Of a stretch of DNA of 64,000 bases, positions 23,495 to 29,036 are shown piece after piece (the first letter of the stretch is position 1; each line of letters starts with the position of its first letter). Where the stretch lies: assembly GCA_027623675.1 (NCBI GenBank), contig JAQBVF010000009.1, positions 32,001-96,000 on the forward strand. Direction: 5' to 3'. A program made the translations under genes and the position numbers. A model generated the notes under the pieces. The model was not told where the DNA came from and searched no databases. It saw only the letters and a list, made by a program, of their open reading frames with translations. The DNA comes from Chloroflexota bacterium (lineage in GTDB: Bacteria; Chloroflexota; Dehalococcoidia; Lucifugimonadales; UBA3495).

Positions 23495-25012
23495 ATGTCT
23501 TCGACCGACCTGGACCATGCCGGCGGCACCTCCCTGACCCGCAGCCCAAACTACAAGTATTGGGTCTTTGGGGCCTTGGCCATCGGCACGTTCGCATCGG
23601 TGGTGGACCACGGCAGCGTCAACGTGGCCCTGCCGACCATCGCCACCAGATTCCAGACCGACCTGCCGACCATCCAATGGGTGGTCATAACCTACGCCCT
23701 CACCATCAGCGCGCTGCTGCTGCCCATGGGGCGTCTCTCGGACCTTATCGGCCGCCGTAAGGTGTACATCGCAGGAATGGCGGTGTTGGCCATCGGAGCG
23801 GCATTGGCCGGGCTGTCACCCAACCTGGAGATGCTGTTCCCGGCCCGGGTGCTGCAGGGCGTGGGCGCCGCCATGACCCAGGGCACGGGCATGGCCATCA
23901 TCACATCAGCATTCCCGCCCAACGAGAAAGGCCGGGCCATCGGACTGATCATGACCATGGTGGGGGTGGGCGCGGTTGCCGGTCCGGCCATCGGGGGGCT
24001 GGCCGTCGACGCCTTTGGCTGGCGCGCGGTGTTCTTCCTGACCATCCCCTTGGAGGTCATCGGCGTGGCCGTCACTCTGTGGGTGATGCGCGGCTGGGCG
24101 GACGTTCGGGAATCCGGGAGAGCCCGGTTCGACTGGTTGGGAGCCACACTGTCGGCGGGGATATTGGTGGCCTTGCTGATCACCATGACCACCGGCAACA
24201 AGACCGGCTGGTTTTCGCCGGTCATCCTGGCCGCCTTCGCCGGGTCCGCCGCCATGCTCGCCACCTTCATATGGTGGGAATTGCACACCACCGCCCCAAT
24301 GTTGGACCTGCGGCTATTCAAGGGCGTAACTTTCTCGCTGGGCGTGTCGGCGGCTTTCCTGACGTTCCTGGGGTCGTCGGCGGTCCTATTCCTGATGCCC
24401 TTCTATCTGCAGAACGTGTTGGGCTACAGCGCCAAGACCGCCGGCTTTGTCGTGGTGCCCGGAGCGTTATGCATGGCGGTGCTGGGGTCGGTCAGCGGGG
24501 TGCTCTCCGACCGGTTCGGGTGGCGTCCATTCACGGTGGGTGGCCTGGCGTCTTCGGCCACCGGACTTATCATCCTGTCGCGGGTCACCGAGACATCGCC
24601 GCTATGGATGGTGGTGCCGGCGCTGATGCTGATGAACAGCGGCATGGGAACCTTCTATTCGCCCAACTCCAGTTCGGTGATGAACTCGGTCAGTCCCGAC
24701 AAGTACGGCGTGGTGTCCGGGTTCTTGAACCTGGTGCGAAACGCCGCCAACGTCACCAGCATCGCCGTCGCCACCATCATCGTCACCGCCACCATGGGTT
24801 CATTGGGCTTCGAGCCAAGCTTGGAAGCGGTCCGGGGCGGCAGCGAGGGGGTTGGCCACGCATTTACCGTGGGACTCCGCTACGCCTTCTTGGTGATGAT
24901 GGGGATGGTTCTCTCAGCCATGACCATCTCCGCCCTGCAACGGGGACGCTCCGGAGAGGAGGCCGCTGACCCGGCGGCCGACGCCCTGGGAAGGTCCCAG
25001 GCCGACGATTAA
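23495..25012 (+). CDS. DHA2 (EmrB/QacA-like) MFS efflux transporter
   Basis: VNVALPTI, QWVVITY, GRLSDLIGRR, GPAIGG motifs; about 14 TM segments. Confidence 0.9.
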   Translation: MSSTDLDHAGGTSLTRSPNYKYWVFGALAIGTFASVVDHGSVNVALPTIATRFQTDLPTIQWVVITYALTISALLLPMGRLSDLIGRRKVYIAGMAVLAIGAALAGLSPNLEMLFPARVLQGVGAAMTQGTGMAIITSAFPPNEKGRAIGLIMTMVGVGAVAGPAIGGLAVDAFGWRAVFFLTIPLEVIGVAVTLWVMRGWADVRESGRARFDWLGATLSAGILVALLITMTTGNKTGWFSPVILAAFAGSAAMLATFIWWELHTTAPMLDLRLFKGVTFSLGVSAAFLTFLGSSAVLFLMPFYLQNVLGYSAKTAGFVVVPGALCMAVLGSVSGVLSDRFGWRPFTVGGLASSATGLIILSRVTETSPLWMVVPALMLMNSGMGTFYSPNSSSVMNSVSPDKYGVVSGFLNLVRNAANVTSIAVATIIVTATMGSLGFEPSLEAVRGGSEGVGHAFTVGLRYAFLVMMGMVLSAMTISALQRGRSGEEAADPAADALGRSQADD

Positions 25013-25028
25013 CCGGCTGACAGTCAGC

Positions 25029-25364
25029 CTATAGAGGACTTTGTCCCAGCAATCCCGCGAACCGCAGGCCCCACAAGACTCCAGCCAGTCCCGTGGACAG
25101 TATCAACGTGACGGTCGCCCGGTTCTTCCACGCCGACCCCCACCAGCTGCCATGAGACTGCGCCAGCCACCAGCCCCGCGCCAACATGAGCACGGTTAAA
25201 GCCAAGAAAGGCCAGGTCATCACCCGCAACGCGGGCGCCAAGGCCAACCCGGCCGACGTTCCCCCCAGAACACCGAGCAGGCCCGGGACCACTCATCACC
25301 AAGGAAGCGGCAACAGTCCACTGAGCAGGCTTACGAACGGCTTTTCCAACGCAAATAGTTTCAT
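25029..25364 (-). CDS. MerT-like mercury transport membrane protein, putative selenoprotein with tandem UU
   Basis: ATG at 25364 with a purine-rich RBS reads MKLFALEKPFVSLLSGLLPLPW-TGA-TGA-VVPGLLGVLGG.. in frame with the track ORF; TGAs at 25293-25298 sit where MerT has CC (CCLGPLVL); hairpin at 25254-25275; downstream of merA. Confidence 0.7.
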
Positions 25365-25503
25365 TGTTTCCCCAACTCTCTCGTCAGATATCTGCCACGC
25401 ACTACGGCTGCTCCGGGTGAGTAAACTCAAGGGCAGCGGTGGAACGGCCAGTCAGATCAGATTTTCCCAAGGCCCGCTGTCTGAAACTCAAGCGCAGGGT
25501 CAC

Positions 25504-26940
25504 CTACTCGACGCAGCAACTCATCTGAGACACATCCCGCGTGAAGGCTTGCGCCGCTCGCTTTATACCCTCGCTCAGGGTCGGAAATACGTGGACGGTA
25601 TCGATTATGTCGTCGATGGTCAGGCTGAATTTCACCGCCATAGTGGCTTCGTGAATCAGGTCCGCGGCATGGGGCGCGACGATGTGAACGCCAAGCACCT
25701 TGGAGTTACTTGGATCGATGACCATCTTGAAAACGCCACGGTCATCCTTGGTGGCCTCTGCCTTTGGGACCGCGTCCATGTAGATGGTGCGGCAAGCGCA
25801 GGCTTTGGTCCTGCGCATCAGCTCCTCTTCAGTGATGCCAACCGACCCCACCTCAGGGTCCGTGAAAACGGCATGGGGCACTTCGTCATAGTTGATGCTC
25901 CTACGCGCGGAAGTCAGCGCATTGTCCGCGGCCAACGCCCCTTCTTTGGCCGCGACCGTCTCCAACGCCATCTTTCCGACACAGTCGCCGGCGGCGAAGA
26001 CGTCCGGGTTATCGGTCTGGTAATACTCGTCGACCTGGATGAAACCGTTTCCGTTGGCTTTCACACCGGCTTTCTCCAGCTGTAACGCGCCGGTATTGGC
26101 CTGGATGCCCGCGGCCAGCAGCAATTGGTCCGCCTCCAGGTCGGTTGCCGTTGTAACAAGACTTCGGTTCCGTTGGACCCCGCTGCCGCCCCGGACCGTG
26201 ACGATCTTCCTGCCGTTCCGTTCAGCCACCTTGTCCACCGTTACACCCACGTGAAACTCGATCCCCTCGTTCTCCAGGTTGCGTTGTAGTTCGGCGGCTA
26301 CCTCCGGCTCCTCACGGGGCAGAATTCGGTCCATGGCCTCCACCACGGTTACCTTCGTGCCAAAGCGAGCGAACATCTGGGCGAATTCCAATCCCAAGGG
26401 CCCGCCGCCAATAACGATCATTGATTCAGGCAGTTCTTGAAGCGCGAGCGCCGAGACGTTGTTCAGCCAGCGAACTTGGTCGATGCCGTCGATCGGCAGA
26501 ACCCTAGTGGAAGACCCGGTGGCGATGATTATCTTCTCCGCTTCGTAGGTCTGACCGCCGGCTTCCACGGCATTCGGCCCAACGAAACTGGCCACAGCCT
26601 CTAGCAGGGTAACCGTATCCAGGCCATCCAGAACGTTGCGGTAATTCCTCTGCCGCAAAGCGCCCACAAGCTCATCCTTTTCTTGGATGGCGGTCTTAAA
26701 ATCGAAATCGGGGCGGCGCCCATTGGAGATAGAGTTGAAATTTGAGTGGGAGCTGTAAAAAAGGTCATTGCCCACGCTGAGCAGGTGTTTACTGGGAACA
26801 CAGCCAACGTTGACGCAGGTGCCGCCCAGGGGCAGGCCGCTGTTGATCATGAGCGCGCTCTTGCCAAGATCCGCCGCTTTGGTCGCCGCTGCGAAGGCCG
26901 CCGCTCCGCCTCCGATGATTATCAGGTCAAGCTTATCCAT
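25504..26940 (-). CDS. merA: Mercury(II) reductase, core enzyme without NmerA domain
   Basis: [13 protein letters not shown] redox centre, HVFPTLSE and C-terminal MSCCVE Cys pair; in a MerR operon. Confidence 0.9.
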
Positions 26941-27147
26941 GGTCGCCTCTCAGTTATTGTTGTTTTAATCAGGTTAGTTTGGCTTTTGACGAGGGGACAT
27001 TTAGCTCAAGGATGAACACATCCTAAGTGCGCTATTGAAGACTCGAGGCATACCCTCTCTCCACGAGTTGCTTCAGCAATGTTTCGGCGTTACTGGACCG
27101 AAACTTTCCCCCACTGTCTGGATTCCGATAAACGATCGAGGCCTTGA

Positions 27148-27672
27148 TCACAGCGTCCGTTCAATCTCGGTCTTCAAAACGTCGTACGACGTAGCGCCGC
27201 CGTCACGGTAGGAGACGAGTCCATTTCGATCCAGGATTATGGTCGTGCCCAGGCTCGTCACTCCGAACTCCTTGACCAACCGGCCGCCGGTATCGTTTGC
27301 CCAGGTCACATCTTCAGCCCCCTTGCTATGCCAGTAATCGCGCCATTCCTCCACGGAGACCCAGGCGGCGGTATTGATGGCCAGAACCTGGACTCCCTGG
27401 GACTGAAATTCCCGTTGCGCCCGCCCTAAGGCTGGAGCCTCCAGCCCGCAGGTGGGTCAACCGGGAAACGAGAAGTAAAGGACCACGGTTTTACCCAGGT
27501 AGTCGTCCATCGCCAAGGAGACTGCTGGAACAGCTCCGCCGGGTCCGTCGGCGGCCGGAGGGCCGGAATCGTTCGCCCCTGAGACGGCCGTGTTGCCTCC
27601 GCAGCCGGCCAGCGCGGCGGTCAATGCCAACATGATCAGAAAAGCGAGCGCCCTGGGGTAGGTTGATCTCAA
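27148..27672 (-). CDS. TlpA/thioredoxin-fold lipoprotein, putative selenoprotein (UPTC)
   Basis: Two track ORFs join in frame through TGA at 27457-27459: LAGC lipobox..GKTVVLYFSFPG-U-PTCGLEAPAL..GVQVLAIN..FGVTSLGTTIILDRNG; hairpin at 27430-27446. Confidence 0.85.
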
Positions 27673-27687
27673 ATCAGCTCCGGAGGG

Positions 27688-27852
27688 TCAACTTGGAATA
27701 TGGTGGTCAAGCGAAGCGGTCGATCCTGGTACCGGGTCTGGTGTTTCGGGTGGCCCGCTTGGGGACCGGCGGAACACCATGGCGCCCAGCCCGATCATGG
27801 CCGGGATCAAGATACAGCAGATAACCGGAAATGCGGCCAGGAAAGCTCCCAC
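27688..27852 (-). CDS. Small membrane protein with CC motif (54 aa)
   Basis: GTG start after AGGT; MGAFLAAFPVICCILIPAMIGLGAMVFRR..; within the mer operon and below the ORF-track cutoff. Confidence 0.55.
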   Translation of the reverse strand: MGAFLAAFPVICCILIPAMIGLGAMVFRRSPSGPPETPDPVPGSTASLDHHIPS

Positions 27853-27940
27853 GATTACCTGCTTCGCCTTTCAGAAGTAGTCCATGAAACCGACCGCGGC
27901 TTTTGGCTCCGGTAGAACGCCAATTTCGGTGGTGCGGCCA

Positions 27941-28177
27941 CTATTCAGCCAGCAATTTTTCGAAGCGGGCGCGGTCAAATCCCACCACGACCTCGCCGTC
28001 GATCACGGTAACCGGGGTGGTCAACACACCCAGCTTCATCAACTCGTCCATTGCGGACTTGTCGTTCATGACATCCCGTTCCACAAAAGGAACATCCCGT
28101 TGCAAAAGATAATCTTTTGCCATCTCACAGAAGTGTCAACCGTCGGGTTGGGTGTAAACGAATATCTCGCGTGTCAT
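27941..28177 (-). CDS. Glutaredoxin/NrdH-like protein, putative selenoprotein (UHFC)
   Basis: AAGGAG RBS and ATG at 28177: MTREIFVYTQPDG-U-HFCEMAKDYL..TTPVTVIDGEVVVGFD; TGA at 28136-28138; hairpin at 28102-28120. Confidence 0.88.
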
Positions 28178-28227
28178 GAACTCTCCTTACTAAACTGATG
28201 GCTGGCTAAACACCTGAGCGTGGCGTA

Positions 28228-28671
28228 CTACCGAGGACGTTTGACGGCTGGGGCGGTCCGACGGTGTGCGACGTCGCTCTGTTCGATTATCGAGCAGATC
28301 TCCCCTCCCTCGGTCTTGCAGTCGACCAGGCCGATCGAGTGCTCTCTTAGCTCGACCAGGTCGCCTTTGAGGGCTTTCAGGTCTTCTATTGATGCCTCAA
28401 CATCCGATATCTTTTGGTCCAACAGGTCGCGGACGTGGATGCACGTCGCTTCTTTCGCGTCATGCAATCGAAAGATTCCCCGAATCTCATTCAAAGAGAA
28501 CCCCAATCGCTTCGCTTTAAGGATGAATTCCAGCCTACTCAACGACTCCCCATCGTACGAACGGTAGCCCCCAGTTGTCCTTGGGGGCTCCGGCATCAGG
28601 CCTTCGGCCTCATAGAACCTGATGGTCTTGGTGTTCGTGCCGGTGGCGCGGGCCAATTCGCCAATCTTCAC
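28228..28671 (-). CDS. merR: MerR family heavy-metal-responsive regulator
   Basis: IGELARATG..TIRFYE..GYRSY HTH; Cys in EATC plus C-X7-C (DCKTEGGEIC), the three-Cys arrangement of divalent-metal MerR sensors. Confidence 0.85.
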   Translation of the reverse strand: MKIGELARATGTNTKTIRFYEAEGLMPEPPRTTGGYRSYDGESLSRLEFILKAKRLGFSLNEIRGIFRLHDAKEATCIHVRDLLDQKISDVEASIEDLKALKGDLVELREHSIGLVDCKTEGGEICSIIEQSDVAHRRTAPAVKRPR

Positions 28672-28700
28672 TGATCGCTCCTGGATAGCTGCTGAATCCG

Positions 28701-28732
28701 ATTCTAAACCTTCCAGTATACTGGAATGTCAA
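28701..28732 (-). promoter_or_regulatory. MerR-type promoter/operator
   Basis: TTGACA-20 bp-TAGAAT; the spacer holds the perfect palindrome TTCCAGTATACTGGAA (28711-28726). Confidence 0.9.
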
Positions 28733-29036
28733 GCAGCATTATAAGCTATACCGGTACGGGGTTATTTGTTGTAAACAATGTCCGGGTCATCAGATTTGCC
28801 AGGCCCAACAGTTAGACCTCCGGCTGATTGTCCCTTTGATGATTGATGCACTCGGCGGCCGTCCTCGCCGGCATGGTCTGGCCTCCGTTGACCGAGTGCG
28901 CGATTCCGGGTGGTCGACTCCGGCGGTGGGATCCAACCAAGGGCTGCCACAACCTCGTTGCCCCGGACCGCCAAAGGCGTTAACATTCGCCTGCTGAGGC
29001 TTGGAACTCGCGGCAAGCGATAAAAGGAGAATCAAA

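Follow-up and report, generated by a model that had tools for sequence, protein, structure and literature searches.

The window, by which we mean the whole stretch of 64,000 nucleotides of Chloroflexota DNA analysed here, carries on its minus strand an operon whose last gene, 139 nt after merA, encodes a small membrane protein with two adjacent in-frame TGA codons. This gene, referred to below as the UU gene after the predicted pair of selenocysteines (Sec, U), is met from its other side by a converging gene for an MFS transporter. The genes of the operon and the features within its last gene are as follows:

28228..28671, minus strand: MerR-family metal-responsive regulator, the first gene of the operon, with MerR Pfam domains
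27941..28177, minus strand: glutaredoxin (PF00462, 4.4e-14) with an in-frame TGA (28138-28136) in the motif QPDG-U-HFC
27688..27852, minus strand: 54-aa membrane mini-protein with a vicinal Cys pair (FPVICCILIP), no family match
27148..27672, minus strand: TlpA/redoxin-like lipoprotein (AhpC-TSA 4.6e-13, Redoxin 7e-12) with an in-frame TGA (27459-27457) in the motif FSFPG-U-PTC
25504..26940, minus strand: merA, 478 aa, with no NmerA domain and ending in ...SCCVE (TIGR02053, 537.5 bits against a cut-off of 454.45)
25029..25364, minus strand: the full UU membrane-protein gene, from ATG 25364 to TAG 25031-25029, 111 sense codons
25293..25298, minus strand: UGA-UGA, codons 23-24 of the UU gene, predicted Sec-Sec, aligned with Cys-Cys of distant homologues
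25241..25284, minus strand: hairpin 1, a predicted SECIS element of about 44 nt, 8-11 nt after the UGAs
25221..25237, minus strand: hairpin 2, CCCGCG-UUG-CGGG, with a GUU triloop and a 5-7 bp stem, within codons A-P-A-L-R-V

Gene calling with translation table 11 returns only a 60-aa piece of the glutaredoxin, from 28123, and splits the TlpA-like gene into two ORFs. At one other locus (L015) the interval from merR to the UU gene contains a glutaredoxin homologue that has the same U. The TlpA-like gene has a hairpin of its own, with a GGC loop 20 nt after its UGA, conserved with stem covariation at two further loci (L027 and L045), of which the L045 copy carries two further in-frame stops and may be broken. 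The 54-aa mini-protein, encoded between the two UxxC genes, could be a second metal carrier of the MerF or MerE kind.

Read from the ATG at 25364, the UU gene has TGA at codons 23 (25298-25296) and 24 (25295-25293), preceded by TGG (Trp) and followed by GTG at 25292, and with TGA read as U its product is a 111-aa protein, MKLFALEKPFVSLLSGLLPLPW-UU-VVPGLLG.... The frame, the adjacent TGA codons and the length of 111 codons without any cysteine were thus recovered from the window sequence just as the first-pass annotation had described them. Since the translated protein contains no Cys, the two predicted Sec residues would be its sole soft-metal ligands, which was also the view taken at first pass; 25 of the 27 UU proteins of the family described below are likewise Cys-free. 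In the table 11 ORF list, as in the databases, the gene is represented solely by an 87-aa ORF beginning at GTG 25292, and of the 64 database relatives that a word-indexed search among 5.8 billion proteins returned, 56 had been called as proteins of 83-88 aa that begin right after the TGA pair. Because gene callers shorten the family to about this 87-aa form, it is invisible to selenoproteome surveys. One database call of 112 aa spans the whole query and reads PLPW-WW-VVPG, as a gene call with TGA as Trp would, and the named matches carry the labels Chloroflexi and SAR202. Among three public calls (P0013, P0086 and P0074), the first two have WW in place of the pair (PLPW-WW-V), probably through TGA=Trp calling, and one of the three reads CW and then diverges. 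An alternative-frame ORF of 92 aa from TTG 25302 was also considered and dropped; third-position variability fits the main frame.

When 401 genomes of the window's order were searched in six frames, the UU gene was matched in 27 genomes and in 25 of 146 genera; within the window's own family, the 24 other genomes gave no match. From these matches 27 copies were extracted, belonging to 25 genomes, two of which contribute two copies each. TGG-TGA-TGA stands at the same aligned codons in all 27 copies inspected, with invariant frame and spacing and within an invariant motif, PLPW-UU-[VI]-x-PG. The first-pass annotation had held two independent nonsense mutations to be implausible, and the retention of TGA-TGA in frame after an invariant PLPW in every copy bears this out; judged from the sequences, the pair is neither a mutation nor a real stop. 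The UU gene is a real, conserved and mis-annotated gene. Protein alignments were built from 18 of the 27 copies (alignment A2), with L020, L025, L026, L030, L031, L033, L036, L037 and L038 omitted for TGA ends or uncertain starts, or as a broken copy. Individual copies show further irregularities. One (L025, genome G200) has a third in-frame TGA (GKG-U-RSPW) where other copies carry Trp, which may have arisen by mutation or by error or may encode a third Sec. The copy in G284 (L038/L043) is broken by a frameshift after about residue 64, and L038 enters the DNA counts but not the protein alignments. In G059 the gene is split, with an N-terminal piece bearing the TGA pair about 1.7 kb from a C-terminal piece (L039); that N-terminal piece, although tabulated with two TGAs, lies outside the 27 counted copies, and L039 enters neither the DNA counts nor the protein alignments. 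The one remaining match that overlaps residues 23-24, in G169 (L040, E 6e-4), was rejected as spurious and of low complexity.

Distant homologues place the TGA pair on a pair of cysteines. A profile of 18 family members in which TGA was read as C was searched against 1.84 billion representative proteins, and it recovered 14 full-length homologues of 89-124 aa with the motif [SA][LI]PWCC[IV]xP[AG]; the other matches were truncated members of the UU family itself. In a profile-profile comparison (hhalign) the UU family aligned with these Cys homologues at a probability of 99.5% (E 6e-23, 90 columns) with UU on CC, a score to which the CC placed in the query profile contributes, although the LPW, P-G/A, LGRxxYL and ST...LW...RF blocks align too. 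The first-pass annotation had set against itself the case of homologues with no Cys or TGA at the two positions; the distant homologues instead carry Cys-Cys exactly there. In reference genomes the PWCC form was found at 19 loci (P0080-P0099, L065-L083) across many phyla, with hosts in the Omnitrophota, Nitrospira, Binatia, Acidobacteriota, Desulfobacterota, Gemmatimonadota and others, but not in the window's order. A sample of 400 genomes of the window's phylum yielded just one further relative, in genome G690 of another order (L064:352-663, plus strand), a 104-aa protein that carries the mixed form CU in SSIC-U-LGVPVF and scores 6e-4 against MerT and 4e-4 against MerC. Of the forms of the pair that the first-pass annotation had suggested tabulating, UU stands in 27 of 27 copies within the order, CC in the distant homologues and CU in the one genome of another order.

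The same homologues link the family to MerT, although at a distance. NF033560 (merT_RC607), a 97-position model with a cut-off of 130 bits, is matched over most of its length by 12 of the 14 Cys homologues, the best of them at 3.4e-9 and 37 bits. Of the 18 UU members, all show a weak match to the MerT portion of MerTP_fusion (cut-off 180 bits; best E 0.001), one matches merT_RC607 (2e-4, again below the 130-bit cut-off) and one matches NF045683 (E 0.04), while Pfam MerT is matched by none and MerC by one (E 0.03); Pfam MerT and MerC matches as a whole stay at E 0.01-0.4. For the window protein itself Pfam gave no family and NCBIfam gave sub-threshold matches only. As all these scores fall below the MerT, MerC and MerTP cut-offs, we regard the UU family as a remote relative of MerT and not as a member. 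The model search proposed at first pass thus turned up similarities solely to MerT, MerTP and MerC models, every one of them sub-threshold, and the label 'MerT-like' holds in the sense of remote homology, through Cys homologues that match merT_RC607, but not in the sense of passing any MerT or MerC model. A canonical MerT was not detected in the window's genome at E <= 0.01 with PF02411 or NF033560.

An AlphaFold2 model built from a 32-row alignment (mean pLDDT 69.5) has helices at residues 8-17, 22-40, 44-70 and 78-105. With moderate model confidence, this predicts three membrane spans, the first of which is kinked at PLPW with UU just past the kink. UU, at residues 23-24, stands at the start of helix 22-40 and, through its alignment with the CC of the homologues that match merT_RC607, at the vicinal-pair position of MerT, with Sec codons in place of Cys codons. 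The cytoplasmic loop carries a conserved S-H..W..R-R pattern. A profile search against PDB sequences found no solved relative, and a Foldseek search of the model against the PDB returned nothing below E 3.9.

The prevalence of database entries that begin after the pair invites the interpretation that the two TGAs are real tandem stops, which close a conserved 22-aa leader peptide (..LLPLPW) and are followed by an 87-aa protein translated from GTG 25292 by coupled re-initiation. Tandem stops terminate efficiently, and the codon after the pair is indeed GTG in 15 of the 27 copies. In the other 12, however, it is GTC, GTA, GTT, ATC, ATA or ATT, so that no ATG, GTG or TTG follows the pair, and seven of these 12 offer their next in-frame start only after another 16-22 codons. 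A codon that shifts in this way among those for Val and Ile varies like a sense codon, which makes a separate 87-aa gene untenable for nearly half of the family. The segment before the pair also behaves as coding sequence: most copies have an ATG 22-23 codons upstream of the pair, and variability at the three codon positions is 0.25/0.09/0.41 upstream and 0.19/0.09/0.40 downstream, the same pattern on both sides, which argues that both segments are coding and in one frame. Where the first-pass annotation had allowed for homologues that start at GTG 25292 with no conserved segment before it, the upstream segment is conserved and evolves as coding. The invariant frame and spacing in all 27 copies, and Cys homologues that run unbroken through PWCC, argue in the same direction, and in the AlphaFold2 model an 87-aa product would begin in the middle of the first membrane helix. 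We therefore consider termination at the pair highly improbable, and the hairpin evidence given below, which is confined to the UGA forms, also counts against it.

The window's genome (3.07 Mb, 48 contigs, 91% complete) encodes the machinery for Sec insertion. SelB (348 bits), SelA (555 bits) and SelD (380 bits) all score over their cut-offs, and a tRNA-SeC with anticodon tca is present. The selD gene (G000:C3:53424-54344, minus strand, L010) itself encodes a selenoprotein, with one in-frame TGA in HCAG-U-AAK and a hairpin with a GUC triloop.

Bacterial SECIS elements lie within the coding sequence at a fixed short distance after the UGA; those of eukaryotes are found in the 3' UTR, from where they act over a distance. 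Behind the TGA pair of the UU gene, hairpin 1 has a base of 4-5 bp (GGCC/GGCC), a U/U mismatch, a middle stem of 7 bp and a variable, covarying upper stem, in which sequence and register vary and pairing is retained. Its apical loop (GGGG, 25266-25263) comes 32 nt after the first UGA, or 29 nt after the second; the corresponding distance is 30 nt in this genome's selD and 20 nt in the TlpA-like gene. The shorter hairpin reported at first pass, CGGUGUUC/UGGGGG/GAACGUCG (25275-25254), 18 nt after the second UGA, is present, but it is only the top of this 44-nt hairpin and not a 22-nt element in its own right. Across the 27 sequences, the consensus pairs of hairpin 1 are formed in 92.4% of cells, a share that falls to 35-47% on sliding the partners by 1-3 columns, and its covariation score of 0.216 (0.154 in shuffles) was reached by none of 500 shuffles. 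At pair 22-57, for example, CG occurs 15 times, GC five times, UA twice and UG twice, and a Leu-to-Val change on one arm is coupled with a synonymous Leu change on the other. In 26 of 27 copies hairpin 1 is more stable than synonymous recodings that kept the protein and the codon usage of the family (mean z -2.9), and for 13 of the 27 none of 300 recodings folded as well. No such excess was seen at the same place in 18 Cys-type loci (mean z -0.3, with three of the 18 below -1.5), and a hairpin selected at the RNA level only where the pair is UGA-UGA is hard to reconcile with tandem stops.

Hairpin 2 follows closely. Its Leu codon is TTG in all 27 copies, although TTG accounts for only 99 of 497 Leu codons family-wide, its Ala codon is GCG in 26 of 27, and all four copies with the variant CCT carry a compensating CAG (CCU/CAG covariation); against recodings its mean z is -2.1. 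G-U in the loop is the feature bound by SelB in solved SECIS complexes. Hairpin 2 is possibly a second SelB site, which we put forward as a lead and not as a finding. An Rfam scan of 24900-28800 with E up to 10 gave no match to a SECIS model and only a chance match to a snoRNA.

A further reading is that the UGAs are read through, but as something other than Sec, either by a near-cognate Trp or Cys tRNA or under a genetic code that uses TGA as a sense codon; public proteins P0013 and P0086, which read WWW at the site, would fit it. Against this, TGA terminates 515 of 1,915 long ORFs of the window's genome (27%) and is therefore a normal stop codon here, and it also closes seven of the 27 family genes. 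The genome has a full Sec machinery, the other in-frame TGAs of the operon fall exactly on the first Cys of CxxC motifs, and a conserved hairpin would have no role in simple read-through. Non-Sec read-through is, in our judgement, very unlikely. The Sec machinery, the conserved and covarying hairpin and the two further UxxC genes in the same operon all support Sec decoding; Sec insertion at the UGA pair is likely, and the UU gene is very probably a Sec-Sec selenoprotein. Of the first-pass proposal that a vicinal di-Sec is decoded from a single SECIS, the Sec-Sec decoding is therefore supported, but a second conserved hairpin follows hairpin 1, so that a single element for both UGAs is not established.

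The genes around the UU copies bear on what the protein may carry. A full merA, encoding a protein 62-73% identical to the window MerA, lies directly upstream at 7 of 27 UU loci, a merA remnant at one, and a MerR-family gene without merA is adjacent at three, so that MerA and/or MerR stand beside the UU gene at 11 of 27 loci. At one locus the neighbours are an ArsR regulator and a CDF efflux pump, at 12 they are unrelated genes (purine synthesis, NAD kinase, rpoB and others), and at three the contig is too short to tell. In G018 (L032/L057) the merA upstream of the UU gene is matched as two segments, residues 1-66 and residues 66-478, whose frames differ, possibly through a frameshift or an assembly error. 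Among the PWCC loci, a MerR-family gene lies in the flanks of 13 of 19, and a MerA-like gene (36% identity) at just one.

With moderate confidence, we favour the explanation that UGA-UGA is decoded as Sec-Sec with the help of the downstream hairpin and that the product is a three-helix, MerT-like protein which uses a vicinal selenol pair to bind a soft metal, probably Hg(II); on sequence grounds, it is probably a MerT-like soft-metal uptake protein. Decoding could proceed by docking of SelB with Sec-tRNA(Sec) on hairpin 1 while the ribosomal A site is occupied by the first UGA and afterwards, 3 nt further on, by the second. The UGA-to-loop distances of both codons are of the kind also used by this genome's selD SECIS, and hairpin 2 may assist or act as a second dock. 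At the outer face the UU protein would then take up Hg(II), held between the two selenolates of helix 1, and hand it inward to MerA, which lacks a metal-binding domain at its N-terminus and carries a Cys-Cys pair at its end, and the UxxC lipoprotein (outside) and UxxC glutaredoxin (inside) would be candidate exchange partners.

We caution against the interpretation that the substrate is necessarily mercury, because 12 of 27 loci lie among housekeeping genes and one beside ArsR and a CDF pump, so that Hg is not the only possible substrate. The Sec-Sec membrane protein might not serve mercury import at all, but instead another soft metal or metalloid under control of MerR- or ArsR-type regulators, for which Cd, Pb, Cu, Au, As or selenium itself could be the substrate, or a diselenide/selenol redox relay in the membrane. 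Consistent with this, the regulator in the window scores better with the CadR-PbrR model (118 bits) than with the MerR model (104 bits), both below cut-off, the Cys-type homologues go with MerR-family regulators and rarely with MerA, and the operon neighbours have thiol/selenol oxidoreductase folds. However, a true merA precedes the UU gene in the window and in six other genomes, and no family similarities turned up other than those to MerT, MerTP and MerC models; we consider a function other than mercury import rather unlikely.

Returning to the favoured Sec-Sec, MerT-like uptake protein, a more elaborate and rather unlikely version of it would have the pair decoded by a two-hairpin signal in which each hairpin holds one SelB-Sec-tRNA, so that the second Sec would be delivered without waiting for SelB to rebind. 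The product would then be the membrane link of an all-selenium mercury relay that would run from the UxxC lipoprotein outside, through UU in the membrane, to the UxxC glutaredoxin inside and on to MerA. If true, such a relay could let Chloroflexota of ocean and groundwater capture trace Hg(II).

Adjacent UGAs raise the question of whether a single element, or a pair of them, lets SelB act twice while the ribosome shifts by 3 nt, and with UGA-UGA as a conserved natural case, simple reporters can be used to test it. As a ligand of soft metals, a vicinal diselenol buried within a membrane helix would be extreme, and Hg(II) held by two selenolates raises in turn the question of how it is handed over to the Cys of MerA. 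If the favoured explanation is true, it would describe a selenium-dependent branch of mercury resistance in a widespread uncultured lineage, the relatives of the gene being labelled Chloroflexi or SAR202.

Among known systems, MerT (PF02411; NF010314 for the Tn501/Tn21 type and NF033560 for the Bacillus RC607 type) is similar in its length of about 100 aa, in its three membrane helices within about 100-116 aa, if the moderately confident model of the UU protein is right, in its vicinal chalcogen pair in helix 1 with a Pro two residues later, and in that the UU gene of the window lies in a merR-merA operon. The UU family differs in having UGA-UGA instead of Cys-Cys and a motif of its own, PLPW-UU-V-x-PG. 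Tn501-type MerT has a second Cys pair, in the cytoplasmic loop, which is missing from the UU protein. The small PWCC membrane proteins share the length and helix pattern of the UU family, in line with the hhalign result, but have Cys-Cys, show no excess hairpin and occur outside the window's order.

Selenium in a membrane transporter of the mercury or soft-metal fold has a precedent in the 'putative mercuric transport protein' of PMC13188914 (2026), which in section 7 and Table 1 of that survey corresponds to PF02411 and has one Sec, in C/SxxU; the UU family has two adjacent Sec codons instead of one, and it matches neither PF02411 nor, beyond the single marginal match given above, NF045683. 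The same section and table cover 119 prokaryotic selenoprotein families and give UxxU as the closest Sec spacing, with no UU motif. Its bacterial double selenoproteins with UxxU or UxxxxU (an NF041115 metal-binding family, an FmdB family and TsoB) resemble the UU protein in having two close Sec residues at a metal or redox site, but none is listed there with adjacent UU. Phrase searches of the literature for adjacent, consecutive or tandem Sec or UGA and for SAR202 selenoproteins found no bacterial case. Two adjacent UGA codons read as Sec-Sec are described for the algal protein PDI_e, which has the motif GUGUU and is reported in PMC7539508 as the first selenoprotein with consecutive Sec; it is eukaryotic and a soluble protein of the thioredoxin fold. 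Measured against the literature found, the UU gene is a new variant of kinds already known.
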